DNA of 64,000 nucleotides from a virus (IMGVR_UViG_3300021256_000056:131096-195095); one strand, 5' to 3'; positions 128-63,957 are shown, counted from the first letter of the stretch. Notes: generated from the letters alone by a model not told the origin. Numbers and translations: made by a program.

Positions 128-943
128 TTAGAAGTTAAGTATGTCTTTCAGGTTTTGATGGAAAGAACCCTTATCAATTGACTTGTAAATTGAGTTCCAA
201 TCAGTGATATTATCTACATCATTCTTCGTTATTTCGTAACGCTTATCACCTACGCCATCATTATCACTTTCAGGGCTATAATTTCCCTCGGCTTCTTTTT
301 GTGCCCAGAAATCCTTCGGTGTCTGATTAAATGGTTCACCAAGGTCTGACCTTAATGTCATTTTTTCAACCTGTGTAGGATTTCTTTTTTCGATTTCCTG
401 TTTCAATTCATCGATATGGGCATTGTTCTTATCAATATCTGTTTCGAACTTTCCAATAAGCTTAATCAATGCATCAATTTTACCGTCAAGGTTATTGATT
501 TTTGCCTGTGCCTCATCTTGGCTATCTACAAGTTCGTCAACGTCAATAACCTCCTCGTCTTCGTCGCTATTTTCTTCTGGGCTTGAAGTAAGAGGTTCGG
601 GGGCGGCGCCTTGTGGATTAAATTCTTCAACACCATTTTGCGCGTTGGCGGCATTGGGGTCATCACCCATTGCGGGGTCTCCGCCTGGTGCGGGAGCGGC
701 ACCGTTAGGGTCTCCGCCCATCATGGGGTCACCACCTGGTGCTGGGGCGCCAGCATTAGGGTCGCCGCCCATTGCGGGGGCATTACCTGGTGCAGGAGCG
801 CCGCCATCCATTGCTGGGTCGGGTGCGTTCGGTGCATCAGCCTCTAACATATCACTGCCACCTCTTTGGATATATTCTAATATTGACTGAAACCTTTTCT
901 GCTTCTCAGTTAGATTATGTTCTTCCAAAAAATTCTTGTCCAT
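128..943 (-). CDS. Pro/Gly/Ala-rich acidic coiled-coil protein, putative head internal/scaffold protein
   Basis: LTE/ILE/MLE leader, GGDP repeats, acidic tract, coiled coil; in late-promoter operon. Confidence 0.55.
   Translation of the reverse strand: MDKNFLEEHNLTEKQKRFQSILEYIQRGGSDMLEADAPNAPDPAMDGGAPAPGNAPAMGGDPNAGAPAPGGDPMMGGDPNGAAPAPGGDPAMGDDPNAANAQNGVEEFNPQGAAPEPLTSSPEENSDEDEEVIDVDELVDSQDEAQAKINNLDGKIDALIKLIGKFETDIDKNNAHIDELKQEIEKRNPTQVEKMTLRSDLGEPFNQTPKDFWAQKEAEGNYSPESDNDGVGDKRYEITKNDVDNITDWNSIYKSIDKGSFHQNLKDILNF
650..805 (-). repeat. Degenerate ~16-aa tandem coding repeat (APAPGGDPxMGGDPN)
   Basis: Three imperfect copies visible in the translation. Confidence 0.75.
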
Positions 944-959
944 CGCCCTTTGGTGTACA

Positions 960-1241
960 TTAGTCTGTGAGGAGTTGTTTGTTATCCTCAGTTATCATTA
1001 TTTTTGAAGATTCGGTCCTTTCTATGAGGCCCTTGTCTTTCTTAATTCTCTTTGTTGTCTGGTCTGGAGTAAGTTCGCTTGCCAGGGCTTCAATTTGGTC
1101 AATATCCATTTTTTCTTGTGTTTTAGATTTCTTATTATTAACGCCAGTCGTAGATTTCTTTATTTCCACAACCTTTGTTTGGGGTGTACTAACCACATAG
1201 TTTTCTACCCGCTTATTTTTATTCAAAAATTTTACTTTCAT
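960..1241 (-). CDS. Hypothetical late protein
   Basis: ORF directly downstream of ACTATTTAT motif. Confidence 0.7.
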   Translation of the reverse strand: MKVKFLNKNKRVENYVVSTPQTKVVEIKKSTTGVNNKKSKTQEKMDIDQIEALASELTPDQTTKRIKKDKGLIERTESSKIMITEDNKQLLTD

Positions 1242-1255
1242 CGTCTATTTTACAT

Positions 1256-1264
1256 ATAAATAGT
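1256..1264 (-). promoter_or_regulatory. Putative late promoter ACTATTTAT
   Basis: ATAAATAGT on plus strand just upstream of ATG 1241. Confidence 0.75.
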
Positions 1265-1289
1265 TTATTAAAAGAAAAAAGCCCCACTT

Positions 1290-1889: not shown

Positions 1890-1911
1890 AAAATTTTGAC
1901 TAAAGTTTTTG

Positions 1912-1943: not shown

Positions 1944-1944
1944 T

Positions 1945-16123: not shown

Positions 16124-16445
16124 TCTCGTATGTCTTTTTGAAAAAATAATTGTCTTTCATTGCGTCAAAAATACCCTCAATTTTCTCGCAATTGTCTTTA
16201 AATTTTATTACATCTTCTGAATCCAATTCAAACCACTCTCCTTTAACTCTTTTTCCCGCATACCATTGATGCAACATATTTTCCATTAAAAATGGATGCT
16301 TTGTCTCAAACTTATTCACTAAATATATTTCACCTGAGTTACCAGTCTGGAGTTTCTTAATTCTCTTCTCTACACTTCCTCTTGTAACCCCAATTTTATA
16401 GTAACCCTCTTTTTCCCAATCTCCTAATATATACACATAGCCCAT
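16107..16445 (-). CDS. GIY-YIG nuclease family protein (T5orf172-like)
   Basis: GYVYIL...YKIGVT...KRIKKLQTGN...E..LH...GEWF. Confidence 0.85.
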   Translation of the reverse strand: MGYVYILGDWEKEGYYKIGVTRGSVEKRIKKLQTGNSGEIYLVNKFETKHPFLMENMLHQWYAGKRVKGEWFELDSEDVIKFKDNCEKIEGIFDAMKDNYFFKKTYENDTTD

Positions 16446-16552: not shown

Positions 16553-17047
16553 ATGAAAACAACGAAACAAAATATCAATGAAATAAAAAGAATCGCTAAA
16601 TCTATGCCTAAATCCATAAACGAGGCTGTTTATGAAGAATTTAGTGATGCAAATAGTGATTTGCAACCAGAAGATGATATGAGGAAAAAGATGGCAGTTC
16701 CTGCCGCTCAGGGTCCTGTTGTTGACGGTCCACAGGGTGAAGATGAACCTTCTGCACCTGCAGTAGATAATGGCGCTGTTGAAGCCCCTGTTACTGATGC
16801 TGGGGCTGCTGATATGGGTGCCGCCGCTGATATGGGGGAGGAAAAAGAAGGAGAAGATTCTTTAAACGTTGAGCAATTTGTTGATGATATCCGTAAGAAA
16901 TCACTTAGGGGAATGGCACAACTTGCCGAAAACCCTGATGATGAAAGATATCAGCTTTTGAAAAAGATATGGCAGATTTGTGATAAAAAGCCTGAACAGC
17001 AAACTGCATTTAGTAATCCCAATCAAGTTCCTCAAAAGAAAATATAA
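16553..17047 (+). CDS. Acidic low-complexity late protein, putative head internal protein
   Basis: INEIKRIAKSM...SINE leader; late motif upstream. Confidence 0.6.
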   Translation: MKTTKQNINEIKRIAKSMPKSINEAVYEEFSDANSDLQPEDDMRKKMAVPAAQGPVVDGPQGEDEPSAPAVDNGAVEAPVTDAGAADMGAAADMGEEKEGEDSLNVEQFVDDIRKKSLRGMAQLAENPDDERYQLLKKIWQICDKKPEQQTAFSNPNQVPQKKI

Positions 17048-17704: not shown

Positions 17705-18805
17705 TTACTTGAACAGGTCTTCCACATCACCAAATTCACCGTTGTTTTCAAAAGGGGATTTTAATTGTTTTGTGGAGAATACTATATATGTTTCACTCAT
17801 ACTGGCCTCTCCATAGAAGCCCTCCCTGATATTATGAAAAACAACACCATCATAACCAAGTTCCTGAGCTAAACAAGCTATTGATTCATTATCTAATGAA
17901 AACCAGCTACCACGCGCATATCTATTGCGGTTTAAGCCGTGCTCACAATATTTGTCAAACAAATCATTATATGCGTTACAGTTCTGCGGGGTTATTGATA
18001 TATCATTCCATGGTCTACCTTCACAATCAATGTGCAATGGATTTAAAACCCTTGCACATAACGGATAAGTACCGCCATGTCCGAGGTATCCGTCTTCTTC
18101 AAACATTTTAGCAGTAAGTTCATCCCTTATCTGTTTTGTCGTTGGAAACACCCTTCTAATCCACGCATCCAAAAATCTTCTGTCATTTGGGCTATCATCG
18201 CATGATGGTGTAAGTATTGGCATACCATTGCGCCCACCAACATAACATAAACGGCCAACATTTTTATTATAATACTTTTCAAAAACCCCCTTGCATATAA
18301 CGAGCCATTTACGCGAGTTTTCAATATTCAAACCATATTTTCTATAACTCTCGATTTTTTCTGGTTCGTATGTTTTTTTTAATTCATCATCATATTCGAG
18401 TTTAATTGTCTCAAACGCATCATCATCAATTAAATAAACTTTATTGGAATCATCACCATGAGTAAAATACTTGTTATACAAATCCAATACATCTTCGTCA
18501 GATAATTTGTTAAGAGTCTCTTTATTTATGAACATGCGCATATTGCCGCCGCTGAAAAAACTAGCGTCGTTAATACTTGAAAGATGTATAAACGGTGTGT
18601 TGAACCTGTTAAAACCGAAAGTCCTCGTAGCATGGCCCAATAATAGTGGCCTGCCATTCTTGTCAACCATCTTCGAACCCGCGAACCAACGCTTGAAGTT
18701 GTCACTCATATATATGTTATCAAGATAATTTTCCCTTAGTATTATCTTTACACATGAGGAAACCATCTCAAATAAATCACTCTCATTTAACATTACTCTA
18801 TTCAT
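17705..18805 (-). CDS. ADP-ribosyltransferase-like (ART-PolyVal type) protein with N-terminal leader
   Basis: NFKRWFAGSKMVDKNGRPLLLGHAT...NPL...LGYDGVVF...YIVFSTKQLKS..NNGEF. Confidence 0.72.
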   Translation of the reverse strand: MNRVMLNESDLFEMVSSCVKIILRENYLDNIYMSDNFKRWFAGSKMVDKNGRPLLLGHATRTFGFNRFNTPFIHLSSINDASFFSGGNMRMFINKETLNKLSDEDVLDLYNKYFTHGDDSNKVYLIDDDAFETIKLEYDDELKKTYEPEKIESYRKYGLNIENSRKWLVICKGVFEKYYNKNVGRLCYVGGRNGMPILTPSCDDSPNDRRFLDAWIRRVFPTTKQIRDELTAKMFEEDGYLGHGGTYPLCARVLNPLHIDCEGRPWNDISITPQNCNAYNDLFDKYCEHGLNRNRYARGSWFSLDNESIACLAQELGYDGVVFHNIREGFYGEASMSETYIVFSTKQLKSPFENNGEFGDVEDLFK

Positions 18806-18823: not shown

Positions 18824-18832
18824 ATAAATAGT
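18824..18832 (-). promoter_or_regulatory. Putative late promoter ACTATTTAT
   Basis: ATAAATAGT upstream of ATG 18805. Confidence 0.75.
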
Positions 18833-32375: not shown

Positions 32376-34523
32376 TTAGAACTCAGTATTATTCATTCTA
32401 TCCAAAATAGAATTAAAGCTTTGTTTATGCTCTTGTAGTTTTTGTTGCTGCGATGTAAATAAACCGTTCAAATGAGTATTCACACTATAAATTGCGTTAT
32501 TTGAGATACACTCAATTGCACATTTTTCCGCATAATTATCTTGTTCAGGCAAATCAAAAACTTCAGCAATTAATCCTAAATTACCATTTTTATCTTTTTG
32601 AATCGGCGCAACATATTCCTTTTTATTGAGATTAAAATAATTTTTTCTGAAATTAAGACTTTCCCCATAAGCAAGTGGCTTTTCCTCCAGTTTAGACGCC
32701 GCACTACCATGAACCCTAACGAATACATAATAAGGTTTTTCACTTGGTTCATAGCAAAGATTACATTGATAACAGTTAATTTTCTTGTCCTCTGATGCTT
32801 CATAAGGTTTTCCGTCAAAACCTCTCCCACAGGGGCATTTATAATAAAAATTACCCGTCGGTACCTTTTTATCCCCTTCAACGGCATATAGCGGCTGGAG
32901 ATTAGGTGTTAAAACCTCACTTTTGCTGTTTATATTTATTGTATTATTTGGTCCATTATAAGTATCATCAAACGCATCGTAAATACTTTCAGGGAGCGCA
33001 ATAAAATACCTCGCAATTGCACCTGCAATAGTATTGTCTTGGGCATTACGTCCAATATAATCCCTAGAGGCATTTATTATAATGTTTTTAATTTTGCTAT
33101 AATTTAACAGCCTACAAGTATAAGCCGATGCTTGTATTCCCAGAAGTTTAATATCCCCACAAATTTCATCAATTTTATCAAGTAAAGCCTGATTTATAAA
33201 ATCACCGTTTTCATTAAGACGAATGTTTTTTATACCCCTATTTGCGGTTTTCACAATCTCTAATTCTTCATTAGAGTACTCACTAAATTTTAATTTTCTC
33301 AGTACGTCAATGGAAGGGACACCCTGTAAGGTCACTTTTTTATCTTGAATGTTCTTTCTTGCAGCTATGAGGTTTTTTCTTAAAACTGAATAATCAACAA
33401 TGTATGTTCTAAGAAGATTTTCAATCAAAACCATCATATTAGGGTCAGCCAAACCAGCTTCCCACATTAAATTTCTTTGTGAGTTTGCTTGGAATACATT
33501 GTTATGTGATTTCTCCTCTGCTCTGGCATAACATGCATTTTTAACCAAACACTCAGCCCACGCTGGGCATCTTTGGGCGCTTGTGAAGTTTATTATTAAT
33601 GTAGAATTGGGCAATTTTGCATTTCCTGCGGAGAAAGTAGAAGCGGGTAATGATACCGCCAACCCATACTTAGACATCATGTATTTATCTAAAATAGAGG
33701 TTAGCATTTTTTGTTTGAGTTCCGAATCCGTTAAAATTTTCTTATCCTTAGTATTCACTAAAACATAGTAAGCGCCATCTACTTTAATATATAATGGAGA
33801 ATCAAAGTCTACTGCTATTTTCGTCTTTTTAGAATTATCTGGGACATATGGTAAAGTAACAACATCATCCATAAATTCGCTCGGAACAACACCAATTGGC
33901 ACATATTTAAATGCCCCCATTGCATATGCACGATATTTTTTGAACTCTGGGCTATCGTATGAAACATTAAAATTGAAATCGTCAAAATTCAAATCATCAC
34001 CATCAGCTTTAATACCATAAGTTTTACTATTGTTTCTTTTAGTGATAGAAGGATTATAGGTCCATTCTAACCCCTGAGAATCGATAAAATCTTGCATTTT
34101 CATCACAAAGTCAACTTCTTCCTTTGGGAGGTCTCTGGACATTCGACTATAATTTATAGTATAACCAGCGCCAGCAGCACTAGATTTTTGTATATATTGC
34201 CTCAATATTTGAATAGCCTTTTTAACATCATCCATTACGGATTGATTAATTTCTTGGCCACTACCTGCTTTGTTTTTAATTCTTATGGCTTGTATTGGGT
34301 TATAGTCGACATTTACTCCAATATTCCTGCCAGCAGCACGTATCTTCCTGGAAATATCATTATCAGTGTTAAGTACTCCGCCTTTTCCGTTGTCTCCATA
34401 CAAATGTGCCATAATATCGCTTTTGGCATTAACAACAGCGGCGTCATTATTAACATCAACTCCTTCAAAGAGCCCACTAATGATTTCTTGAAGTATTGTT
34501 TTATGTATTTTTTCTTGTTTCAT
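32376..34523 (-). CDS. Late protein with GP88-like Cys-rich (possible Fe-S) domain
   Basis: GNAKLP...CPAWAECLVKNACYA...IRLNENGDF...AYT...KCPC...CYQCNLCY...VH. Confidence 0.6.
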   Translation of the reverse strand: MKQEKIHKTILQEIISGLFEGVDVNNDAAVVNAKSDIMAHLYGDNGKGGVLNTDNDISRKIRAAGRNIGVNVDYNPIQAIRIKNKAGSGQEINQSVMDDVKKAIQILRQYIQKSSAAGAGYTINYSRMSRDLPKEEVDFVMKMQDFIDSQGLEWTYNPSITKRNNSKTYGIKADGDDLNFDDFNFNVSYDSPEFKKYRAYAMGAFKYVPIGVVPSEFMDDVVTLPYVPDNSKKTKIAVDFDSPLYIKVDGAYYVLVNTKDKKILTDSELKQKMLTSILDKYMMSKYGLAVSLPASTFSAGNAKLPNSTLIINFTSAQRCPAWAECLVKNACYARAEEKSHNNVFQANSQRNLMWEAGLADPNMMVLIENLLRTYIVDYSVLRKNLIAARKNIQDKKVTLQGVPSIDVLRKLKFSEYSNEELEIVKTANRGIKNIRLNENGDFINQALLDKIDEICGDIKLLGIQASAYTCRLLNYSKIKNIIINASRDYIGRNAQDNTIAGAIARYFIALPESIYDAFDDTYNGPNNTININSKSEVLTPNLQPLYAVEGDKKVPTGNFYYKCPCGRGFDGKPYEASEDKKINCYQCNLCYEPSEKPYYVFVRVHGSAASKLEEKPLAYGESLNFRKNYFNLNKKEYVAPIQKDKNGNLGLIAEVFDLPEQDNYAEKCAIECISNNAIYSVNTHLNGLFTSQQQKLQEHKQSFNSILDRMNNTEF

Positions 34524-35184: not shown

Positions 35185-35187
35185 TTA

Positions 35188-35629: not shown

Positions 35630-35638
35630 ACTATTTAT
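35630..35638 (+). promoter_or_regulatory. Putative late promoter ACTATTTAT
   Basis: Exact motif upstream of ATG 35660, divergent from the 35568 copy. Confidence 0.75.
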
Positions 35639-35659: not shown

Positions 35660-36316
35660 ATGGGAAAAACTTTAATCATAAATAAAGAGCAATTAGATGA
35701 AATTATCGAAGGTACTCCATATTTGGATACTACCGAAAAAGGTAATATACCACCTAACAGTCATTTAAATGTAACAACAACATCTGGTGGGGTTTTACCC
35801 TCGGATTTTGCCGACCCCAAGACTGGTAAAGGCCACGCAAAGCCATATAAGACAGATGATGCTGCCGATGCGATGGGTCCTCCTACAAATAACTGGTCCC
35901 TAAAAGGTCGAACTGGACAATTTGGTGGCATTCCAATTGCCGCACCCCTTGAAGAGAGGTATTCAAAGAAAGAATTCGAAGCTAAACTTCTTTCTGAAAT
36001 GAATAGCCAGTTACAGAATATTACAATGACTGCAAACATCACTAATCAACAAGACCCCAATAATCCGATACAAATAAGCGGAAAGGAGGGGAAATTAGCA
36101 AAAGAGAAAACGCTAGCAAAACAGCGTGGTGATATTCAAACCTATAATGCAGTAAGTAAAGTATTAGACGGGCGCAGACAGGCAATTAAAAACAGTAAAA
36201 AAATAAATGCCCAGGCGGGAATGGTAAACCAATTCCAAAAACCAGGAGGCAATAAAATAATGGGGAATGGTCAGGCACATACTAAAAAGAATGAGCCAGG
36301 CATCGTTACTTATTAA
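35660..36316 (+). CDS. Hypothetical late protein with leader motif
   Basis: MGKTLIINKEQLDEIIE N-terminus. Confidence 0.7.
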   Translation: MGKTLIINKEQLDEIIEGTPYLDTTEKGNIPPNSHLNVTTTSGGVLPSDFADPKTGKGHAKPYKTDDAADAMGPPTNNWSLKGRTGQFGGIPIAAPLEERYSKKEFEAKLLSEMNSQLQNITMTANITNQQDPNNPIQISGKEGKLAKEKTLAKQRGDIQTYNAVSKVLDGRRQAIKNSKKINAQAGMVNQFQKPGGNKIMGNGQAHTKKNEPGIVTY

Positions 36317-36342: not shown

Positions 36343-36771
36343 ATGGATAAACAAAGCAAACTAGAAAAGATTGGTAAGAAATATAGAGATAACTCTCTTA
36401 TTGTTCAAGGTCAGCAAGTAAACGCTCTTGCAAGGAACGATTATAATAAAAACGAGCCTTACAACGACAGACATGTTGATGCACATTGGGATGAGAATAA
36501 CACAGACCCCGACGGAAAGCCACTCGGAAAAGGAACTAATAATGGCGGTCATAAGTTCTCCATTCCAAATCAGGCTCTTTCATCTGATATTATAGTACCT
36601 CAATTTGACACTGAGAATGGTGGAGGTAGCCATGATATATTTGGAAGAAGGGAATTTGAAAGCGGCAGAAATTATCTCCAAAATATTAGTCTTTATAATA
36701 AAAACCGTCAATATGGAAAGCACAGTGTCGATATTGACGATATGATTGACGGACAATTTCTTGTTAAGTAA
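36343..36771 (+). CDS. Hypothetical protein
   Basis: ORF in late operon. Confidence 0.7.
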   Translation: MDKQSKLEKIGKKYRDNSLIVQGQQVNALARNDYNKNEPYNDRHVDAHWDENNTDPDGKPLGKGTNNGGHKFSIPNQALSSDIIVPQFDTENGGGSHDIFGRREFESGRNYLQNISLYNKNRQYGKHSVDIDDMIDGQFLVK

Positions 36772-37622
36772 TGAATCTTTTCGGGGAAATACTTAAAGAA
36801 TGCAATCTACTTCTCGAAAAAAAGAACGAAGTAACAGAGGATAAAATTAAAGATGCGATAGAGAACTGTAAGATTGTATCAATAATGTATAACGACGGAA
36901 CGCCCAATGGCGGGAAAAGCTGGCGTTATATATATCCTGTTGTTTTTGGTGAACTTAAAAAGACTGGCAACAAAGCCATTCGTGCATATCAGGACGGAGG
37001 GTCAACAAGTAAAATCAAGGAAAAAGGAACAAACCACGGAATGAAACAAGGATGGAAACTCTTCAGACTTGATAGGATTGTTGCCTGGTACAACCAAGAA
37101 AACACAGAAACTGATTTAAGTCACGTATTTACGCCCCAAAATCTTGCCGATTTAAATACCACAGGAGATAAATCATTTAGTAAAATTTATTACCATTCCC
37201 CCGCAATAAAGGTTGAATATGGCATAGATTCTAATCCAGTAACAAAGACAGATATTAATGGCGGTGAACCCGTTAAACCCGAAGCACAAAAGGAACCTAT
37301 TGTTAAATATACATTTAATCCAGACTGGAAAAATCAATATAGCGAAAAAACAAATGGGGTTTCTCTTGATAATTCAGGAAATATTAATTATAATTCAAAT
37401 AAAGAGGATAAACTCACTGCTCCACAAACGAAACCAATTCTTAAGACCGATTTAGTGCCGCAAAACGAGATACCTCAAAATGAAGAGCCCAAAAACAAAC
37501 AAATGACCGCTGATGAAACACCTGTTTCAAAGGATGAGGTTAATGGCGAAGAAGATAATACTTTAACCAAAACCTTTAACGATTATTTGGATAGATGGGA
37601 AAAAGTTGAAACACAAGATTAA
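36771..37622 (+). CDS. WYL-domain protein
   Basis: IKDAIEN.KIVSIMY...RYIYPVVFG...IRAYQ...GWKLFRLDRI. Confidence 0.75.
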   Translation: MNLFGEILKECNLLLEKKNEVTEDKIKDAIENCKIVSIMYNDGTPNGGKSWRYIYPVVFGELKKTGNKAIRAYQDGGSTSKIKEKGTNHGMKQGWKLFRLDRIVAWYNQENTETDLSHVFTPQNLADLNTTGDKSFSKIYYHSPAIKVEYGIDSNPVTKTDINGGEPVKPEAQKEPIVKYTFNPDWKNQYSEKTNGVSLDNSGNINYNSNKEDKLTAPQTKPILKTDLVPQNEIPQNEEPKNKQMTADETPVSKDEVNGEEDNTLTKTFNDYLDRWEKVETQD

Positions 37623-53346: not shown

Positions 53347-54012
53347 CTAGAAGCCCAAAATTTCTTTAGCTTCACTTTTAGTTTTTTTGTCTTGGGGTAC
53401 CGATACAGTCACATTACTCCATTTCCCAAGCGTCGTGTCTTTTGGTACCAATATATCAATTTTGTGTTGTCCAGCAAAACGTTTATTCATGGTATCTTCA
53501 ATTCTCCAAAGACCATCCCATTTACCTGCCCCCTCAATTTTGACAACATCACCATATTTTAAGCCAAACTCCTTCATCATCGTTCTTTCCATTGCTATGA
53601 TTCTATGGGAAAGAACATCATTGAGATTGAGTTTAAACATTGATGCAGTATGTATAACGTCTTTGTTACATTGAGCGGGAACTGCATTATATACGGTTGC
53701 TAAAACGTCATTTGCAATAGGTGTCCACTTACCTGGAGGATTAGCCAGGTTCTCTTCCCTTGTTTTTTCGGGCTCTTGAGCAACCTCTTCCGTCTGCGCA
53801 GCCTGCTGCAGTAATTGTTTTTGTGCATTATTAAGGTTGAATGATAAAACAATATTTGCTATCAAACTTGCGGTAAGAAGCCCCTTCTTACCCAAATCCT
53901 TAACATTTGCCAAAATTTCATTAAAGGACATCCCTTTATGAAAGAAGCTTTCCATGATAACCTCTTCTCTTAGTAGTGTCCTCATTTGATTTTCTGTTAA
54001 AACGACTTTCAT
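53347..54012 (-). CDS. 3D-domain (MltA-like) peptidoglycan hydrolase with N-terminal leader
   Basis: ATVYN...TAS...IIA...YGDVVKIEG...IEDTM...KIDIL; MKVVLTENQMRTLLRE leader. Confidence 0.78.
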   Translation of the reverse strand: MKVVLTENQMRTLLREEVIMESFFHKGMSFNEILANVKDLGKKGLLTASLIANIVLSFNLNNAQKQLLQQAAQTEEVAQEPEKTREENLANPPGKWTPIANDVLATVYNAVPAQCNKDVIHTASMFKLNLNDVLSHRIIAMERTMMKEFGLKYGDVVKIEGAGKWDGLWRIEDTMNKRFAGQHKIDILVPKDTTLGKWSNVTVSVPQDKKTKSEAKEILGF

Positions 54013-54972: not shown

Positions 54973-54981
54973 ATAAATAGT
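54973..54981 (-). promoter_or_regulatory. Putative late promoter ACTATTTAT
   Basis: ATAAATAGT upstream of ATG 54955. Confidence 0.75.
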
Positions 54982-57060
54982 TTATTCGTCGTCAAAAACT
55001 GACACATCCTCAGTTATCTGTCCCGTGCCCTCATCATCTTTGAAAATCTCGTCAAATTTAACACTCAACTCTTCCAATGTGGCTATAGACTTTTTGAGCT
55101 GCTCGCTTATTGATGCACTTTTACCGACATAATCAACCACTTCGGGTTCTCCGCTATTACGCTTCGCAACTTCATTCAACATGTCAAAATATTGGGCCGC
55201 AATTGTCTTTGGCTGTGAATTTTTGCTTTCGCGAATTCCTGCAAATCGAGACAATGTTTCTTGAAGAACATTACCAGAATCAACGGCAGGAGCATTACTC
55301 ATTGGGGCTGCCGCAGATTCGCCGCCAATTGAAGAGGATGTATCTTCCCCAGGTGCACCAAGAGAGTCCATATGAAGAGAACTTCCTACACCTTCTCCAC
55401 CCCCAAAGCCCCCACCGCCTGGGCCACCAGGGCCACCCTGTTGCTGCTGCTGCCCCATTTGTGGCTTATTCATTGCGTCGGGGTCACCATAAATTCTATC
55501 AACAGGGTCAAAGATACCAGTTTTCTTGATAACACTAGCGGTGTTAGCCAACTCAGCGGCCATAGCCGATTCGAGTCGTATCTCATTAAACATATCTTTT
55601 ATGTCACTATCATTCATCTTCATAATTTCCTTAAGAATTCTGTGTAGCGACATCAATGGAATACCATTTGCCAATGGCTGTGCAGCCGCTAAGGCAACTT
55701 GCACTCTTTTAGATGTATCCTCAAGCTCAAGTGTTTCAATCTGCGCAGAGGGATTGTTCATTCCTAAAGTAAAGTTTGTGATATCATCTTCAAATCCAAG
55801 TAAATAAAGATGTATCATTGCAATCTTATTCAACTCAAGAAGAAGGTACTGTTGTATTTTATTTACCATTCTGCAGAACCGAATATCTAGGAGTGAAAGA
55901 TTTTGGCCCCTGCCCTGTGGCTCCTGGAAGTTAAGATATGTTTTAGGCACACGCAACGCAGCGAAAATCTTGTTTTCCATGTGCTGTATATCTTCCATAC
56001 TGTCGGTGTTATGTGCAGCTTGAAGGGTTTCAATAGGATTAGGGGCATCCTCTCTACGTACAGGGATAAAATAATCCGTAGAAACATCCATGAAATTCTT
56101 CCTTAGGTCAACTTGTCCAGTGAGAGGGTCAATTATTGGAGTTCTCTTGAAATTATTAGCGACATCCTGTATGAAGGCAGGCACGTCCGCATCGTCAATT
56201 GCTCCAACATAAATTTTAAACACACGTCGCTCAATACTCTTATCCAAACGATAAATAAGCATTGCATCCTCCATCATTGAAAGCATTCTCCATGCCCTAC
56301 GGGCCTTATGTAAAATACTTGTTCCATATGGAAGGAAGAAAGAATCGGCAAGCATTCTAAAATGTGCTACCTGCCAATTATAGAATGGTGTATTATTGTT
56401 ATGCCCAACCCACACGAATTTTGTTTCGTCGTTAGTTAAAACGTTAGTTTGAGTTGTAACAGCAACAGATGCTCCTGCGGCTCCGCCATAACCATTTTCC
56501 AGTCGGTCCATCTCGTATGGGCTAATCCTTCTCCAACCAAGTATTCCGTGCTCCTTATTGAGGTTGAGGAACATGTAGTCATTACCATATTTACACATAC
56601 CACGGCAAACCATAGGTAAATCTACATTAACGTGGAGTCTATTATAGAACAAATCTTCGAGAACAGCCTTAATTCGTGGCGATTTGGAATAAACTTTAAG
56701 CATTTTGCCATCAGACGCAATATTACATGCTTCCTCAGCATATATATCAAGTGCAGCGCCAATCTCAGGCATAGTTTCCATCAAATCAGCATCTCTAAGC
56801 ATGAGCTTTACTGCGGTGTATCCCGCAAGACTCTCCATTGCATTATCGGCACCAACCTTCAACCACTGATATGAAAGCAACTTTTGCTGCCTCAATTCAG
56901 CAAGCTTAGCCTCATAATCAGCCTTATTATTTGTTGAATATAATACTCTATTTGGTGTTACAAAACCACTAGTGTTATCTGGGGTGAAAATTTCAGGCAC
57001 ACTTGCACCGTTAACAACCCTTCCTAGGTTTTGAAAAACCGTTTTTCCATTACTAGCCAT
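54982..57060 (-). CDS. Portal protein (T4 gp20-like)
   Basis: PEIGAALDIYAEE, PYGTSILHKARR.W..L.MMEDAMLIYR...ERRVF.I.VG, DYFIPVR, ALRVPK.YL, DIRF. Confidence 0.93.
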   Translation of the reverse strand: MASNGKTVFQNLGRVVNGASVPEIFTPDNTSGFVTPNRVLYSTNNKADYEAKLAELRQQKLLSYQWLKVGADNAMESLAGYTAVKLMLRDADLMETMPEIGAALDIYAEEACNIASDGKMLKVYSKSPRIKAVLEDLFYNRLHVNVDLPMVCRGMCKYGNDYMFLNLNKEHGILGWRRISPYEMDRLENGYGGAAGASVAVTTQTNVLTNDETKFVWVGHNNNTPFYNWQVAHFRMLADSFFLPYGTSILHKARRAWRMLSMMEDAMLIYRLDKSIERRVFKIYVGAIDDADVPAFIQDVANNFKRTPIIDPLTGQVDLRKNFMDVSTDYFIPVRREDAPNPIETLQAAHNTDSMEDIQHMENKIFAALRVPKTYLNFQEPQGRGQNLSLLDIRFCRMVNKIQQYLLLELNKIAMIHLYLLGFEDDITNFTLGMNNPSAQIETLELEDTSKRVQVALAAAQPLANGIPLMSLHRILKEIMKMNDSDIKDMFNEIRLESAMAAELANTASVIKKTGIFDPVDRIYGDPDAMNKPQMGQQQQQGGPGGPGGGGFGGGEGVGSSLHMDSLGAPGEDTSSSIGGESAAAPMSNAPAVDSGNVLQETLSRFAGIRESKNSQPKTIAAQYFDMLNEVAKRNSGEPEVVDYVGKSASISEQLKKSIATLEELSVKFDEIFKDDEGTGQITEDVSVFDDE

Positions 57061-57175: not shown

Positions 57176-57179
57176 AAAT

Positions 57180-57839
57180 ATGAGAAAATTAATTGATAAA
57201 TGGGTGGATAAAAAAATTCACCGATTAACAGAAAATAAGGACCTTTTAAGAGGTGTAAAAGACGAAATAATGAAACCCTTCGCCAAAGCCCTTAAAGTCT
57301 TCGTAGAGCCCCATTATGACGTCTTAGTGAAGGATTATGAGGGCGAACCAGAATACTTCAAAGTTTTCAACATAAAACTCTTTAAAAAACCTCATTTTTT
57401 AATAAGCAAACCATGGAAATATATTAAGCTCAATTATACTTTCAGGTTGGGTGAATTTGTTATATACGGATTACCAGAGGCAAGTGCGGTTTTTTATGGA
57501 AAAAAAATTTCCGTAATACCGTATATACCCCACACTAACACTACGAGCAGCCATAATTATTGGCTCTCAATACTTGAGTACACAGAAGGCCATGGAGTCC
57601 ACGCGGGGAGTATTATTAAAACGGTAATGTACCTCGGAAAAGCCAGCATGGGTATTCAATTTAACGAATACAACCCTCATATAATGGAAGTATCCGAAGG
57701 TTCAGATACAATACACGCTGATGCTCCCAACTCCCTTTATTTCATTGTCGACAGGTCGTACATTAAATCAGACTATCAAAACGATTATGATTTTGCGGTA
57801 AAAAGATACAACCAAGAAGAAAGTCCTCTAATGATTTAG
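57180..57839 (+). CDS. Hypothetical protein
   Basis: 219-aa ORF with own promoter, antisense to the structural cluster. Confidence 0.7.
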   Translation: MRKLIDKWVDKKIHRLTENKDLLRGVKDEIMKPFAKALKVFVEPHYDVLVKDYEGEPEYFKVFNIKLFKKPHFLISKPWKYIKLNYTFRLGEFVIYGLPEASAVFYGKKISVIPYIPHTNTTSSHNYWLSILEYTEGHGVHAGSIIKTVMYLGKASMGIQFNEYNPHIMEVSEGSDTIHADAPNSLYFIVDRSYIKSDYQNDYDFAVKRYNQEESPLMI

Positions 57840-59827
57840 AAACTTTCTAATTTTTCCGCCGTGATTTGTGGCAACAAATATTTACCCGTATTTCGCAAGA
57901 CTTGGTCAATGGCAACATTAAGCGCTGCTCTCCCACGTTCTCTTTGATAGGCTACCAAATAGCAAAACTCAAGAGCGGGAATCCCCTCTTTATATTTTTT
58001 AAGATAATCCACTGTTTTGTATATGGCAGGTGCAATGAAGGCAAAATTATAATAACATCTCTTTAATTCATTTAATATGTTAGGATAATAACGAAGTTTA
58101 TCTTCAATCACACTCCACTCCTTCTTGCTTATCACTTTCCTATCATCATTCCACTTTAAATTTTTGATACGCTGTAGAATATTGTTACCGAAACCCGTTT
58201 TTTCCATAACAATCTTCAACGTGCCTACCAATTCGTCCCACTCGTTACCGACTGATTGTCCAACGGCAAAGGGAGTGATATTTAATAATCGAAAAGCAAC
58301 CTTTTCTAAAATCATATCCATTGTGATACCAAATTTAGTATCACCGATAAGGCCTAGAAACCATTTTTTACCGTTATCGGATAATTCAACTCCCGTCCTC
58401 CTTTCAATGACATTCATCAGCTTTGCACTATATTGGGAAAGATTTGTATTTTCATTTAATGCATCCGTTTGCTCTTTTTTGACTATCTTGATGTTTTGCG
58501 GGTTAAATATCATATAATTATGGAATTTTTCCCCCGTAATACCATTATCAGATAATATTCTCAAACCAACATAGCCCCTAGAATCCAAGTATTCTGATGC
58601 GTCTTTATCACTACCAAGTATTGAACTAATTGTATTATAAACTTGAACTCCATTATCAGCCTTTTCTATATATTGGCACTCCATATCCCAGAACTCCTTT
58701 TCATGGCCAGCATATGCTTCTTTACCATAATCGGTTTGAAGGTAATAATTATAGAAATCCCTAGCTATTTTTCTAACTTCTATTGGTGAAATTACTTCAC
58801 TGTCAAGGAACCTATTCCCTGTTATTTCCGCGGTATACATATAATGTCCTGCAGAATATTCCCTTGCCGTTTCTGGGTTGTCACTGAGATATACCCCGTA
58901 ACCATAATCGGCCTGGCCAACGCCCGTTAAAACATATTTCAAATCAAAATAGTCAAAATCACTAAAAGAGCCATGATATAATGTTAAAGGCTGCTTTGGA
59001 GTCCTATTTTCGTATAGTGAATTATATTCGTTACCAAGACTACCTCTCGAATAATAGTTATATAAATCATCAGATAATTCAGAGAAATCCAAGCCAACGT
59101 AACGCTTATCGGCGCGTCCATTCCTACCACCCAAGAAATCAACATCTATAATGTCCTGAGCATGATATTCACAAAATTGTCTCACTTGTTGCAATTGTTC
59201 CTGTGTTGGGTATTTTCCAAATTCCAAACTAACATTAGAAAAACGAACATTACCCAACTTGGTGAAATCCTCGCGATATTTTATTTCAGAACTTATTCTG
59301 AAGCAGGCATTATGGTCCCAACCAGCGTCCAGAACGGTTCCATCAGTTAAAATCCAACCGCGGAATTGCCCACAAGGACTATCTACTACCCCCATCACCC
59401 TTTTCGCAGCCTTATTAAGAGATTGTGGATTATGTATATCAACCTCCTCATCGCCTCTGTATTCTGAAAATTCAAATGAATGCTCACGCTCGTCCATACA
59501 ATCATTCAATATTGCCGCCGCAAGTGTCTCACCAAATTCATCTTCCATTTCAGAATAATTTAATGTTCCAGACTCACAAGTATGCCAGGTTTCGCCATTG
59601 AGGTAATCAATATCCCAATCACAATTATCTTTCACATACGCAAGCTTAACCGCAGGCGAGTCTTGTAAACCGTTATCTTGGAGATACTCTTCATAATAAT
59701 CCTCGTCAAAATTAAGCGTACAATTCACGCCCCCATAAAAGCCATTGTCAATAGCAGCCCCTTCTTTAAGAAGTGCCGCCCTTATCGCCTTTATTTGGCC
59801 TTCGGTTATTATAAGCTTCTTTTTCAT
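57836..59827 (-). CDS. Multidomain protein with central ART-PolyVal-like ADP-ribosyltransferase domain and N-terminal leader
   Basis: LYHGS..DFDYFD....TG.G...YGYGVYLSD...A..Y...ASEYL...GY.G...NYMIFNPQNIKI; MKKKLIITEGQ leader. Confidence 0.72.
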   Translation of the reverse strand: MKKKLIITEGQIKAIRAALLKEGAAIDNGFYGGVNCTLNFDEDYYEEYLQDNGLQDSPAVKLAYVKDNCDWDIDYLNGETWHTCESGTLNYSEMEDEFGETLAAAILNDCMDEREHSFEFSEYRGDEEVDIHNPQSLNKAAKRVMGVVDSPCGQFRGWILTDGTVLDAGWDHNACFRISSEIKYREDFTKLGNVRFSNVSLEFGKYPTQEQLQQVRQFCEYHAQDIIDVDFLGGRNGRADKRYVGLDFSELSDDLYNYYSRGSLGNEYNSLYENRTPKQPLTLYHGSFSDFDYFDLKYVLTGVGQADYGYGVYLSDNPETAREYSAGHYMYTAEITGNRFLDSEVISPIEVRKIARDFYNYYLQTDYGKEAYAGHEKEFWDMECQYIEKADNGVQVYNTISSILGSDKDASEYLDSRGYVGLRILSDNGITGEKFHNYMIFNPQNIKIVKKEQTDALNENTNLSQYSAKLMNVIERRTGVELSDNGKKWFLGLIGDTKFGITMDMILEKVAFRLLNITPFAVGQSVGNEWDELVGTLKIVMEKTGFGNNILQRIKNLKWNDDRKVISKKEWSVIEDKLRYYPNILNELKRCYYNFAFIAPAIYKTVDYLKKYKEGIPALEFCYLVAYQRERGRAALNVAIDQVLRNTGKYLLPQITAEKLESF

Positions 59828-60957: not shown

Positions 60958-60979
60958 AATTGTGACTTGTTTTTATTAT

Positions 60980-60988
60980 ATAAATAGT
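60980..60988 (-). promoter_or_regulatory. Putative late promoter ACTATTTAT
   Basis: ATAAATAGT upstream of ATG 60957. Confidence 0.75.
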
Positions 60989-61023
60989 CTCAATGGCGCA
61001 TTAAAAACAAATGTTGGATTTCG

Positions 61024-61045
61024 AACTATTTATTAATAAATAGTT
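61024..61045. promoter_or_regulatory. 22-bp perfect palindrome made of two inverted late-promoter motifs
   Basis: AACTATTTATTAATAAATAGTT, 8 nt before terL ATG. Confidence 0.8.
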
Positions 61046-61053
61046 AACGGAAT

Positions 61054-62931
61054 ATGATTGACTACGATTTATTAAGGGAGGAATATGTTAAATGTATTAG
61101 TGACACCAGTCGCATATACATGATTGAACATTACCTCAAGACATATGACGCCACCCAGAAAAGAGAAGTGCCATTCATGTTATTCCCAAGACAAAAAGAC
61201 CTTTGCCAAACGTTGGGTAATGCCAGTAACGTTGTTACCACGAAAGCCCGTCAGATGGGTATCACCACAACCGCAGGCGCATTCATAGCATGTGAAATGG
61301 GGCTTGCAGACCCCGAGTCTCCACAAACAGTTCTAATTATTGGTAACACAATAGACCTGGCGCAACAGATGCTAACCAAAATAAGGGATTTCCTACTACA
61401 ATTTCCCTGTTGGTTGTGGGGCGATGAATTTATCAAACCAGACACAACAATGGACAGCGTCCCAACAAAAAAACAGATATTCAATATTTGCAACACCAAG
61501 GAGTTAGTCCTAAAGAACGGATGTCGAGTAGTAGCGCGTTCCTCAGGCCCTGATGCGTCTCGAGGTGTCGGTGGTGTTACATGGCTTATTTTTGACGAAG
61601 CGGCCTTCATTGAGAACGGACGCGATGTCTATACATCTGCACTACCTACCGTATCCACTGGTGGACACGTGATTATGATATCCACCCCCAATGGTAAGGA
61701 CCAGCTATATTACGAAACCTGCCGCCTAGCAAAACTTAAAGGAACCAAAGATTGGAACGAGTTTGAGCTCGTAGAAATGAAATGGTATCAAGATTTGAGA
61801 TATAATAAATTTCTTGAGTGGACAAAGAAAAACACCGAAACGGGAGAGGTTGAAGTATATAAAGAGCCCACAATTGATAATGAGGGTAACATTAAGTACG
61901 ACCAGGCCCACTGGGACGAAATGCTTAAGGACGGCTGGATGCCACGTTCACCTTGGTATCTTAAAATGTGTCACCAGTTCAATAATGATAGTATGAAAAT
62001 TGCACAGGAACTTGACGTTTCGTTCTTGGGCTCTGCCGCAAACGTTGTTGAGCCAGAGGCGATTCAAATGCAACTCGACCTGAACGTCAGGGAACCACTA
62101 TACGTCGACCCGCTTTGTGAAGATACGTGGATTTGGAAAGAGGCTATTGAAGGCCACAGATATTTAATGTCCATAGACTGCTCCCGTGGTGACGCTGCGG
62201 ATAGAACCGCAATTGAAATTCTTGATATGGATGGCGTCGACGATGACGGTACCCCATGCTTGGAACAGGTTCTCGAATATCACGGCAAAAAACTAGGCGA
62301 TACGATTGGTGAGATGGCATTCCATTATGGTAGGATGTATGGGGAGGCATACGCGGTTGTTGATTGCGTCGGCGGCACAGGTGACGCTTGCGTGCTTATG
62401 ATGCAGCGCCTTGGTTACAAGAACCTATTCTATGATGATGTAAATCTTAAAACATACACCATACAAAGAGAGGCATCTTCAATACCAGTTTCTACCGAAG
62501 GCAGGGCGCCTGGCTTCCACACAAATGCCGTTCGCGACCAAATGTTAACTGGATTTGCCGATATGGTTAGAACTAACGCTATCAAAATTCGTTCAAAACG
62601 CGTTATCGCGGAACTTGACACTTGGATTTATAAGGGTCCCTCCGCACGTATCGACCACCAGGATGGGTGTCATGACGATACTCTAACTTGTCTCGCGATG
62701 GGTACGTTTGTCATGAAATTCAGCATGAATAAACTTATTGCGGCAAAGAACAGAGATAAGGCCCTACTCAAATCTTGGGTTGCGGGGGTTAATGTTGAGG
62801 AAAGGCCTGTATCCACTAAGGCTGGAAGCATCTCAGTGGCCCCAAAACGCCACGCAATGCCCATATATTCAAACAACATGGTATCAAACAGCAACCCCAT
62901 CTTTGATGCATATAAATGGCTAATCAAATAA
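61054..62931 (+). CDS. terL: Terminase large subunit
   Basis: FPRQ, KARQMGITT, IFDEAAF, ISTPNG, QELDVSF, SIDCSRGD..D, HDD nuclease motifs. Confidence 0.93.
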   Translation: MIDYDLLREEYVKCISDTSRIYMIEHYLKTYDATQKREVPFMLFPRQKDLCQTLGNASNVVTTKARQMGITTTAGAFIACEMGLADPESPQTVLIIGNTIDLAQQMLTKIRDFLLQFPCWLWGDEFIKPDTTMDSVPTKKQIFNICNTKELVLKNGCRVVARSSGPDASRGVGGVTWLIFDEAAFIENGRDVYTSALPTVSTGGHVIMISTPNGKDQLYYETCRLAKLKGTKDWNEFELVEMKWYQDLRYNKFLEWTKKNTETGEVEVYKEPTIDNEGNIKYDQAHWDEMLKDGWMPRSPWYLKMCHQFNNDSMKIAQELDVSFLGSAANVVEPEAIQMQLDLNVREPLYVDPLCEDTWIWKEAIEGHRYLMSIDCSRGDAADRTAIEILDMDGVDDDGTPCLEQVLEYHGKKLGDTIGEMAFHYGRMYGEAYAVVDCVGGTGDACVLMMQRLGYKNLFYDDVNLKTYTIQREASSIPVSTEGRAPGFHTNAVRDQMLTGFADMVRTNAIKIRSKRVIAELDTWIYKGPSARIDHQDGCHDDTLTCLAMGTFVMKFSMNKLIAAKNRDKALLKSWVAGVNVEERPVSTKAGSISVAPKRHAMPIYSNNMVSNSNPIFDAYKWLIK

Positions 62932-62979
62932 TATTTGGAAAATTAAGAAAAATAATGTATTTTTAACAAAAATATAAAA

Positions 62980-63957
62980 ATGGCAAAAAATCAATTAAAT
63001 GAAATGAAGTCACTCATTAACCGTATGGAAAATCCACAAAGCGGTTGGGCGACGTTGATACAAGAAGGAATATCTGAGCTAAACGCACAAGATAGAGAAG
63101 ACGTTCCTACTGACCAATTTTTTGATATGGTCGCTGGAATGCGCGGCGGCTGTAAAGCCACAATTGGCTATATATCAAAAGCCAGCCTTGCATATCCACA
63201 GGAGAAGAGGCTTAATCCAGCAACTGGCAGAATGAAAAATTTCGATGATATGGCAAGCTTCGGAAAAGCACTTGGCGAAGAGAAGGAAATTGTGGGCGTT
63301 ATTAAATTTGGATGCTATACTCTAAACTGGAGAAGCCCCAAGAACATGAACAAGCATTATAATCGCGACTATGTTGATGTTGTCAACCCAATTCGTTCAA
63401 AATATGGTTTATCACCAATAGAGAAAAGAAAGGGTTATACCGATACCGCCGATTTTGGAAAGGGAGGAATAAGTGTTTATAATGGTGGAAACGAAGAACT
63501 TGCGGGACACTCTTACAGCCCCCAGGATATCGGAGGAAAAGATGTAACTAAAAAAGAAGTTACATATTATCTTATTTTCTCGGATGGAAGCATGAAAGCC
63601 GTAGAAGATATCAACCTTCTTAAGCCCTATTTTAAGGAAAGGTCCGTTAGTGGAGTCGGCGAATTGAGGAAGCTCGGTAAGAGTGATGAGGAGATAAAGG
63701 CATATGCCGACGAAATTGCCGCAGTTCCATTCAAATACACACAATTCGAACACTCTTCCGTTGTATTTGTGATAACAAAGGTTAATGGAGAGGAAAAACG
63801 CTATTTCAACGATAATCTCAGAAATATCATCAAGGATGTGACCATAAATCCTGAAGAGTTTGTTAATATTGCTAAACAAAAATATCAAGTTGAAACACAA
63901 AAGGTCGATAATGACCTTGGGGAATTCGAAGACGAGTATCCCGAAGTTGGAGAATAA
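62980..63957 (+). CDS. Hypothetical protein with leader motif, putative head protein
   Basis: MAKNQLNEMKSLINRME...LIQE N-terminus. Confidence 0.7.
   Translation: MAKNQLNEMKSLINRMENPQSGWATLIQEGISELNAQDREDVPTDQFFDMVAGMRGGCKATIGYISKASLAYPQEKRLNPATGRMKNFDDMASFGKALGEEKEIVGVIKFGCYTLNWRSPKNMNKHYNRDYVDVVNPIRSKYGLSPIEKRKGYTDTADFGKGGISVYNGGNEELAGHSYSPQDIGGKDVTKKEVTYYLIFSDGSMKAVEDINLLKPYFKERSVSGVGELRKLGKSDEEIKAYADEIAAVPFKYTQFEHSSVVFVITKVNGEEKRYFNDNLRNIIKDVTINPEEFVNIAKQKYQVETQKVDNDLGEFEDEYPEVGE

Follow-up and report, generated by a model that had tools for sequence, protein, structure and literature searches.

The capsid targeting sequence (CTS) of phage T4 is the textbook case of ready-made proteins, such as the anti-restriction protein IPI* and the ADP-ribosyltransferase (ART) Alt, being sent into the host with the DNA, and its presence on internal proteins was reportedly described by Mullaney and Black in 1996. 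The CTS on IPI, IPII and IPIII and the propeptides of Alt are removed by the prohead protease gp21 (PMC9026906, PMC3012670), which cuts past L/I-x-E, and Alt is a packaged and processed ART (PMC9026906). The internal proteins are diverse and counter host defences, and the CTS is their sole common feature (PMC3012670). In phiKZ, 201phi2-1 and SPN3US, propeptides of inner-body or ejection proteins are cut by diverged gp21 homologues (PMC9026906, PMC5694885, PMC7411985, PMC10052503). For the polyvalent proteins of phages and conjugative elements, entry into the host together with the DNA has reportedly been proposed, and the ART-PolyVal and InPase domains were defined in such proteins (Iyer et al. 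2017, cited in PMC7824862).

The stretch of DNA analysed here (the window, 64 kb) is the final part of a 195-kb fragment that represents about half of a genome (53%-complete contig, G000). The source is an uncultured rumen/gut-type megaphage related to T4, whose portal, terminase and contractile tail are T4-like. The portal has tblastn matches in 2,217 T4-like phages, and megablast of 16 kb of the contig against cultured phages gave no match. Pfam searches for T4 gp21/gp23 found no head protease, capsid protein or scaffold on this contig, and the protease and capsid protein of Flavobacterium phage immuto, used as phmmer/tblastn queries, retrieved nothing on it. No head protease is visible, probably because the contig ends about 7 kb beyond the portal gene; synteny with a complete relative (G001) puts the gp21-type protease outside the contig end. 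From the relatives and the position of this end, we infer that the phage encodes a prohead protease, a capsid protein and a scaffold. When the last gene of the contig was used to scan viral and metagenome sequences, only contigs of 1.5-7.5 kb came back. A 519-aa late protein, considered as a candidate capsid gene, was set aside after tblastn against phages gave no match. A papain-like peptidase (34564-35184) was rejected as the leader-processing enzyme because it sits beside a lipoprotein gene and belongs to no family of head proteases, and because cutting specific for Glu points to S77 instead.

Table 1 Features of the window, with positions counted from its first nucleotide
Feature	Position	Strand	Remarks
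366-aa leader protein	17705..18805	-	Leader residues 1-25 (nt 18731-18805), then ART-PolyVal-like domain with insert
218-aa leader protein	35660..36316	+	Leader residues 1-17 (nt 35660-35710), then basic low-complexity body
221-aa leader protein	53347..54012	-	Leader residues 1-16 or 1-21 (nt 53965-54012), helical region, C-terminal double-psi beta-barrel; second gene 3' of portal
663-aa leader protein	57836..59827	-	Leader residues 1-22 (nt 59762-59827), then domain without assignment, ART-PolyVal-like 279-453, C-terminal module 460-663
271-aa very acidic protein, end of tail/baseplate operon	128..943	-	PSSM 1.7; outside leader family
164-aa acidic low-complexity protein	16553..17047	+	PSSM 1.7; outside leader family
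GP88-like 715-aa protein	32376..34523	-	PSSM 2.8; outside leader family, degenerate look-alike at most
283-aa protein with WYL-like motif	36771..37622	+	PSSM -5.7; outside leader family
325-aa protein 3' of terminase gene	62980..63957	+	PSSM -4.9; outside leader family
T4 gp20-type portal gene	54982..57060	-	phrog_213 at 1.6e-49; anchor of head module
Large terminase gene	61054..62931	+	phrog_2 at 1.3e-34
ACTATTTAT virion-gene (late-type) promoter motif	18824..18832	-	Upstream of 366-aa gene
ACTATTTAT motif	35630..35638	+	Upstream of 218-aa gene
ACTATTTAT motif	54973..54981	-	Heads operon: 310-aa gene, then 221-aa leader gene
ACTATTTAT motif	60980..60988	-	Heads operon: 376-aa head-completion-like gene, then 663-aa leader gene

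Four proteins of the window belong to a real, portable N-terminal leader family that ends in the T4 prohead-protease motif. The leader forms an amphipathic N-terminal helix, 16-27 residues long, that follows the pattern h-h-[T/N]-E-x-[Q/D]-h-x-x-h-h ... L/I-x-E. Some leaders have a second turn resembling E-S-V-K-K-h-L and others lack it, and L/I-x-E always closes (4/4 leaders in the window, 9/9 on the contig, where five further members lie outside the window). In all nine, the core begins 3-6 residues past the ORF's first Met; in alignment A2 the closing E is invariant and the L at least 90% conserved. PSSM scores are bimodally distributed, with seven proteins at 19.9 or above and the next at 9.7, and the four window members score 21-24. 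A matrix derived from G001 alone recovers the members on our contig (12 matches of at least 11 bits versus 0 in reversed sequence), and in the portal regions of relatives (465 kb) 27 of 33 matrix matches are N-terminal. Behind the leader the proteins share nothing detectable by blastp, as none of 21 leader-stripped cargos matches another. Different codons encode 47% of identical leader residues, which argues for selection on the protein. Pairwise 12-mer comparison of all N-termini revealed no second leader class on the contig.

Two of the four proteins are ART-PolyVal-like, and neither has a sequence match in the PDB. The 366-aa protein (PSSM 22.5, core 4 residues past Met, late motif 18 nt upstream of the ATG) matches PF18760 over profile positions 49-140 with 34.6 bits, above the 31.2 cut-off; the 663-aa protein (PSSM 22.6) reaches 28.8 bits, which is under it. 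The gene for the 366-aa protein lies between the sheath and tube genes. The 221-aa protein (PSSM 21.1) has 947 homologues with a conserved leader, in which T6 and E7 are nearly invariant. Its C-terminal domain folds as a double-psi beta-barrel (DPBB), the fold class of 3D, RlpA and expansin domains, with a weak Atlas lead (0.88). The 218-aa protein (PSSM 24.0, or 23.4 with the G001-only matrix; late motif 21 nt upstream of the ATG) has no Pfam, PHROG or usable Atlas match.

The preliminary description had assigned a common leader to nine proteins. All nine N-termini lie at the starts given, and the shared motif is found in these four; the other five score at most 2.8, within the range of internal control windows. 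The [LI]-x-E ending that was to unify the nine carries little information. It occurs in 24% of the internal 23-residue windows of this phage, about 14 of 60 window proteins would have it ending at residues 8-30 by chance, and a bare [LI]-x-E is too common to mean much. One of the quoted leaders, at 62980, ends in R-M-E. The cargo list fared unevenly: two ART-PolyVal-like proteins and a protein of the 3D fold class are tagged, the GP88-like and WYL-like proteins are untagged, and WYL and 3D have no Pfam detection (PF13280 in the 283-aa protein, 8.3 bits, E 0.56, over 13 residues; PF06725, no match anywhere on the contig). What does exist at the level of sequence is the proposed modular address tag on unrelated late proteins, ending in the T4 prohead-protease motif. 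For this window the system comprises four genes, not nine, and the acting protease would lie off the contig.

The remaining five are ordinary late proteins with an incidental N-terminal [LI]-x-E, or bearers of propeptides of their own. Chance is the likely reading for the 325-aa and 283-aa proteins and a plausible one for the 271-aa, 164-aa and 715-aa proteins. The 715-aa protein reaches 31.5 bits against PF17338 (GP88, cut-off 24.4) when summed as a whole, with no single stretch above the cut-off, and its faint likeness to the leader of the 218-aa protein is non-significant (12-mer score 29, below 31, the 99.9th percentile of shuffles). The 164-aa protein has its own N-terminus, conserved in a G001 orthologue whose match is limited to residues 3-61. 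The 271-aa protein (net charge -34) has a full-length G001 orthologue at 6e-58. The orthologue of the 325-aa protein is located in the G001 head region.

All nine genes do follow ACTATTTAT/CTATTTAT directly or lie in an operon so headed, as had been described. ACTATTTAT occurs 17 times in the window, with 1.4 copies expected, and the virion-gene motif governs 9/9 leader genes of the contig versus 0/106 other genes (p = 1.5e-4). Equal frequency of [LI]-x-E in early proteins had been named beforehand as the refuting outcome. We found it commoner in late-type N-termini (31/68 versus 20/106, p = 2e-4), also when the strong family is left out (22/59, p = 0.008), and the equal-frequency test therefore does not refute the proposal.

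Relatives supply the head genes. All five large relatives encode Peptidase_S77, the T4 gp21-type protease, above the cut-off, as well as gp23 and scaffold, and the protease of G001 matches 5JBL, a structure of T4 gp21, at 4e-18. The relatives' capsid proteins retain L-L-[S/R]-E, with Ala next to it, near residue 59, and their proteases retain L-L-I-E near residue 20. Leader genes in G001 are interleaved with portal, scaffold, protease and capsid genes. The leader cargos there are ArdA, SAM-lyase-like, pyrophosphatase (InPase) and ART-like proteins, and the Pfam domains of the ArdA and InPase cargos start at profile position 1, directly behind the leader. In another relative (L005), a module matching residues 446-529 of the 663-aa protein stands alone as a gene and has its own leader.

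The spread of the leader became visible through profile search, not word-based search: the former yielded 3,998 public cluster representatives at E <= 1e-3, and the latter, run with the leader region, 9 candidates near query length and 2 among longer proteins. Seven public proteins have a near-identical 27-residue leader and diverge directly past L-x-E. The best 150 public matches contain 308 leader copies, all 308 of which end in [LIVMA]-x-E (283 in L/I-x-E, 251 in L-x-E). Many public proteins also carry the motif internally, and as a signal it is therefore not strictly N-terminal. In tandem polyprotein-like ORFs with cargos of about 100 residues, a Glu-Ser-Lys site is enriched 17-fold upstream of the leader. 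Pfam gave almost no cargo annotation for the 150 proteins. In four of them the first 23 of 43 profile positions of PF25734 (RelB_like_antitoxin, "putative antitoxin family") align with the leader, and a 112-aa protein of our contig also matches weakly. All these scores are weak (best 1.2e-5; 17 bits, cut-off 27). This is probably the same helix by chance or family contamination, and we draw no functional link from it.

We read the leader as a putative prohead-targeting propeptide of the T4 CTS kind; capsid loading with cleavage appears to be the best reading, with a probability of about 0.6. Since their shared helix of 16-25 residues ends in the cutting motif of the T4-type head protease, the four proteins are most likely loaded into the capsid in the way that T4 loads its internal proteins. 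Packaging, cleavage and injection are what we infer, and the steps would be as follows. Leader genes would be transcribed together with virion genes, and during prohead assembly the helix would dock each protein on the scaffolding core, possibly as a mimic of a similar helix that the scaffold protein has near its N-terminus; the likeness between leader and scaffold helix is weak (0.7-6.8 bits). A gp21-type serine protease, active solely inside the prohead, would then cut past the closing Glu and release the cargo inside the head. Some of it, at least, may exit with the DNA at infection, candidates being the ART-like proteins here and the ArdA, SAM-lyase-like and pyrophosphatase proteins of a relative.

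An unlikely reading, though the strongest of the alternatives, takes the helix as an uncleaved assembly or docking element, either for oligomerisation or as a handle for the portal, neck, tail lumen, baseplate or a phage chaperone, and the tagged proteins as structural or tail-associated. The AF2 model of the 221-aa protein (pLDDT 82, helix 7-23) packs the leader helix into a four-helix N-terminal bundle, where it may therefore be a retained structural element. This protein and its positional counterpart in G001 look like cell-wall hydrolases, which in myoviruses are usually located in the tail; Foldseek returns DPBB, expansin and RlpA-like chains, with baseplate chains among the top matches and listed first. 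The siting of the 366-aa gene and the internal copies of the motif point the same way. Left unexplained by such an element are the end of similarity at an L-x-E that is invariant and identical to the motif of the T4 protease, the simple prefixing of the tag to full-length ArdA and pyrophosphatase domains, and the clustering of leader genes with scaffold, protease and capsid genes in G001.

It is quite improbable that the tagged proteins are diverged paralogues that retain only an ancestral N-terminal helix, with no addressing role. Most cargos lack a recognisable family, and phage accessory genes duplicate and diverge quickly; against this, the cargos include unrelated known folds (ART-PolyVal, ArdA, InPase, SAM-lyase-like, DPBB), share no residual similarity, and include one module that has a leader of its own in one case and is fused behind another protein in the other. 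Least probable of all, as an account of the leaders, is the chance occurrence of N-terminal [LI]-x-E in an AT-rich phage with Lys/Glu/Ile-rich proteins, which suits the motif frequency and the five control-like scores given above and is excluded for the four strong members by the cross-genome recovery, the reversed-sequence null, the bimodal scores and the 3,998 public representatives.

If capsid loading is taken together with the public proteins, the leader may be a portable packaging code that uncultured gut and rumen megaphages use on thousands of protein families. It would derive from, and co-assemble with, the N-terminal helix of the scaffold, and the prohead protease would cut it at its closing L-x-E and, in tandem "polyproteins", on both its sides. 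We hold this joint reading tentatively, at somewhat less than even odds. Were it true, the packaged and injected proteome of phages that have not been grown (ARTs, ArdA, SAM-lyase-like enzymes and many small proteins of no known kind) could be read from sequence. A tag working like the T4 CTS would mark a large reservoir of effectors for host takeover and anti-defence in the first minute, mostly without a known family, and would give T4-type capsids a second natural tag by which foreign proteins could be loaded. We found no paper that describes the leaders: literature searches returned no biological paper with the leader hexapeptides (n = 6) in its full text, none of the papers listed treats a capsid targeting sequence together with a megaphage, jumbo phage or huge phage, and the Jug-phage paper does not mention the leaders.

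The principle is known from T4, and the tag itself is a distinct and very widespread version (~4,000 public metagenome clusters). As with the T4 CTS, a short N-terminal peptide with an L/I-x-E end stands on otherwise unrelated late proteins; the megaphage lineage has head genes of the gp20, gp21, gp22 and gp23 types, an ART-like enzyme is among the cargo, and anti-restriction proteins are found in a relative. The CTS (MKTYQEFIAE) is shorter, with 10 residues versus 16-27, and shows no evident similarity by eye, although the design of a Met-Lys start, an amphipathic body and an h-x-E end is shared. T4 has a handful of copies, whereas there are about 9 on this half genome and about 16 in the complete relative; the megaphage leader, known here by its sequence, also often recurs inside polyprotein-like ORFs. 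In phiKZ, 201phi2-1 and SPN3US, likewise giant myoviruses, many head proteins are cut past the Glu of a short motif and many are ejected into the host. Their cleavage motifs are S/A/G-x-E or A-x-E. Their propeptides differ in being long and non-uniform, and we know of no single portable leader sequence described for them. The polyvalent proteins share the ART-PolyVal and InPase domains that we find behind the leader; they are giant and multidomain with embedded proteases, whereas the megaphage cargos are mostly separate small tagged genes or short tandem fusions.

The window makes up the final 64 kb of one virus contig, 195,095 bp long (CheckV completeness 53%). Besides the portal and terminase genes (see table), it encodes a tail sheath, tube, tape measure, baseplate parts, a family-B DNA polymerase and a helicase. 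By tblastn, the portal matched 2,217 T4-like phages; among cultured phages, Microcystis phage Mel-JY01 and the Flavobacterium 'immuto' phages come nearest. Uncultured contigs measuring 300-363 kb are more closely related (portal identity 55-61%). Based on gene content, portal matches and these large uncultured relatives, we read the contig as a fragment of a T4-superfamily megaphage. The motif CTATTTAT occurs in 46 copies on the contig and usually stops 10-30 nt 5' of the ATG of a virion gene (portal, sheath, tube, tape measure, terminase and baseplate included). We treated it as a virion-gene promoter motif of presumably late type. Two copies lie face to face between the divergent terminase gene and the operon of the head-completion gene and the 663-aa protein; in G001, a complete relative of 363 kb, the terminase gene has the opposite orientation.

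Features of the window and of related phages (bare coordinates are window positions)
Feature	Location	Strand	Content
T4 gp20-type portal gene	54982-57060	minus	
Large terminase gene	61054-62931		
Facing promoter-motif copies	61025-61044		near-perfect palindrome
1823-aa baseplate-operon protein	1945-7416	minus	C-terminal endolysin-like domain (phrog_894, residues 1712-1805)
Late-motif operon directly upstream of GP88-like 715-aa gene	34564-35553	minus	121-aa protein with lipoprotein-type signal (hydrophobic stretch then Gly-Cys); 206-aa papain-family peptidase (Peptidase_C1, 31 bits)
Two overlapping small genes between baseplate hub and tail tube genes	15602-16445	minus	homing-endonuclease-type matches (HNH-like; endonuclease N-terminal domain)
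Acidic late protein	128-943	minus	net charge -34
Acidic late protein	16553-17047	plus	net charge -11
ORF of Flavobacterium phage immuto 3-5A	L003:2851-3315		leader-like core, score 18, about 18 residues from annotated start
S77 protease ORFs of two relatives (loci L087-L090)	G003:C1:79573-81243; G004:C1:190923-192566		about 607 aa, uninterrupted (open frame about 620 codons)

The preliminary description had proposed that nine otherwise unrelated proteins share an N-terminal leader helix closing in [LI]-x-E. All nine N-termini were confirmed, with gene starts derived from ORF logic and the promoter motif, and that motif lies directly before the gene or heads its operon in every case. The common leader itself was confirmed for the proteins of 366, 663, 221 and 218 aa (gene starts 18805, 59827, 54012 and 35660; matrix scores 21-24), whereas the other five (34523, 16553, 62980, 943 and 36771, named by gene start) score at most 2.8 on the position matrix, in the range of internal control windows; for several of these five, chance is the likely explanation. 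As a basis for joining proteins the [LI]-x-E ending is weak: 24% of internal 23-residue windows have it, chance alone should give about 14 of the 60 window proteins one that ends at residues 8-30, and the leader quoted for 62980 ends in R-M-E. Across all 174 contig proteins the best N-terminal matrix scores are bimodal, with seven proteins at 19.9 or above and the next at 9.7. The comparison of late with other genes came out in favor of the proposal, N-terminal [LI]-x-E being found in 31 of 68 late-type vs 20 of 106 other proteins (p = 2e-4) and, with the strong family excluded, in 22 of 59 late-type proteins (p = 0.008). Pairwise comparison of all N-termini of the contig revealed no second shared leader class.

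The leader follows the motif h-h-[T/N]-E-x-[Q/D]-h-x-x-h-h and always closes in L/I-x-E. In the short form (16-17 residues) this ending comes directly after the core; in the long form (22-27 residues) a second turn similar to E-S-V-K-K-h-L stands between the two. Five further leader genes lie outside the window on the same contig: a 112-aa gene in a tRNA island, a 488-aa gene and three clustered near contig 80-84 kb. The virion-gene motif stands over 9/9 leader genes of the contig, and 0/106 other genes have a leader (p = 1.5e-4). A matrix built from G001 only recovered the members on our contig 3-6 residues past the first Met, with 12 matches of at least 11 bits vs none in reversed sequence; conversely, the matrix trained on our contig placed its top G001 matches 1-5 residues past the first Met. 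Identical leader residues are encoded by differing codons in 47% of cases, so it is the peptide that is constrained and not the DNA or mRNA. In the portal regions of 31 close relatives (465 kb), 27 of 33 leader matches are N-terminal, vs only 3 of 18 weak matches in more distant T4-like lineages (623 kb). Thus, we conclude that this version of the tag is lineage-specific. The long-form profile matched 3,998 cluster representatives at E <= 1e-3 (1.84 billion proteins, 50%-identity clusters), although multi-copy proteins raise the significance of E-values for this 32-position profile. In immuto 3-5A, several small genes between portal and protease open with short peptides ending h-x-E; this cultured distant relative is a possible experimental entry point.

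Conservation is concentrated at the end of the leader. Of the columns in an alignment of 15 long-form leaders, only the closing Glu is invariant, and the Leu two residues earlier is at least 90% conserved. A near-identical 27-residue leader is common to the 112-aa protein and seven public proteins, which are unrelated right past the closing L-x-E. The best 150 public profile matches contain 308 leader copies; each ends in [LIVMA]-x-E, with L-x-E accounting for 251, and the next residue is mostly Gly, Ser, Asn or Ala. Unexpectedly, 178 of these 308 copies lie inside proteins, and successive copies are separated by about 100 residues (median). A Met stands at the projected start of 23% of internal copies, and Glu-[S/N/G]-[K/R] occurs within 14 residues upstream of 36%, vs 2% of control positions. 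Internal copies look like tandem fusions of leader-cargo cassettes (the cargo being the protein remainder), each internal leader lying between two putative protease-type sites. One rearrangement of this kind is seen in the window: the part of the 663-aa protein past residue 459 is a separate gene with its own leader in relative L005. Many of the public leader proteins P0131-P0280 are tandem units of about 100 residues, each behind its own leader, and almost no cargo among them has a Pfam family.

No T4 gp21-type prohead protease (Peptidase_S77, S77), capsid protein (Gp23) or scaffold gene was found on this 53%-complete contig. S77 and Gp23 score above curated cut-offs in 5/5 large relatives, and the G001 protease (gene at L112:944-1669, minus strand) matches crystal structure 5JBL of T4 gp21 at 4e-18. 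Away from the portal, G001 carries in order a leader-tagged ART-like gene, a head-completion gene, terminase, the 62980 orthologue, capsid protein, scaffold, a leader gene, protease, a 249-aa gene with an internal leader copy, leader-ArdA and a gene with a leader-like start; a 312-aa gene and a leader-tagged wall-hydrolase-like gene lie on the opposite side. In G001 the S77, Gp23 and scaffold genes thus come after the orthologue of the last window gene, and by this order the protease of our phage is most probably encoded a few kb beyond position 64000. In the relatives, capsid proteins conserve L-L-[S/R]-E then Ala near residue 59, proteases conserve L-L-I-E near residue 20 and scaffolds are rich in h-x-E sites, the same pattern as described for T4 gp23, gp21 and gp22 (PMC9026906). 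In 5/5 relatives, a helix at scaffold residues 31-46 lines up in register with the leader's second half, at only 0.7-6.8 bits; we regard this likeness as a lead, not a result. In G003 and G004 the S77 Pfam match falls into N-terminal and C-terminal parts about 900 nt apart, which suggests an in-frame insertion (an intein or inserted domain); in G001, by contrast, homing-endonuclease-like genes flank the protease gene.

We propose that the leader is a propeptide resembling the T4 capsid targeting sequence (CTS). It would dock the protein onto the scaffolding core, a gp21-type protease would cut behind the closing Glu, and the cargo would stay in the head, part of it to be ejected. We assign prohead targeting plus cleavage a probability of about 0.6. 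The main rival, a helix that serves docking or oligomerisation without being cleaved and perhaps belongs to tail or portal assembly, is unlikely; the internal copies, the wall-hydrolase-like cargos (a kind usual in tails) and the modelled position of the 221-aa protein's leader helix within a four-helix bundle speak for it, but it leaves the invariant protease-type ending and the placement among head genes unexplained. With leaders removed, the 21 tagged proteins of our contig and G001 gave no mutual blastp match, and divergent paralogy is improbable. Chance is more improbable still for the four strong members.

Injection of the cargo as effectors is less probable than targeting plus cleavage and falls slightly short of even odds. 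The 366-aa protein has an ART-PolyVal domain above cut-off and the 663-aa protein one just under it, and the 218-aa protein is basic and low-complexity. The 221-aa protein has 947 homologues, and its C-terminal domain is predicted to adopt the double-psi beta-barrel fold seen in expansin, RlpA and 3D domains (one AF2 model, pLDDT 82). Tagged cargo in G001 includes a full-length ArdA antirestriction domain (3e-30), an S-adenosylmethionine-lyase-like domain (4e-7), a polyvalent-protein-type inorganic pyrophosphatase (2e-48), DUF5856 and, at the position of the 221-aa gene, a glucosaminidase-like domain just under cut-off. ArdA, SAM lyase and ARTs benefit from presence at DNA entry. Injection with phage DNA has been proposed for ART domains of this type (PMC7824862). 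WYL and 3D cargo, as first suggested, are unsupported by Pfam, and the GP88-like and WYL-like proteins carry no leader.

Other genes of the window merit mention. The 1823-aa baseplate-operon protein is a candidate tail-associated wall hydrolase, which would make the leader-tagged beta-barrel protein a second wall-active virion protein. The papain-family operon would place a secreted or membrane cysteine protease among virion genes, which is unusual, and the two overlapping small genes might together encode a mobile endonuclease that is split or consists of two parts. The two acidic proteins, each with a conserved N-terminal helix, a very acidic, Ala/Pro/Gly/Asp-rich low-complexity middle and a helical C-terminus, appear scaffold- or chaperone-like in architecture; conservation of the 16553 protein in G001 is limited to the first ~60 residues.

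The T4 CTS has ten residues (MKTYQEFIAE), is sufficient for packaging and is removed after I-A-E. In T-even phages it is the only common part of the internal proteins, which are diverse anti-defence proteins (PMC3012670, PMC9026906). A literature search found no published description of the present leader. This leader is like the T4 CTS in its proposed working and differs from it in sequence, length and copy number, in its spread over thousands of protein clusters and in its frequent internal copies. The leader would be a distinct version of the known CTS principle, not a new principle.
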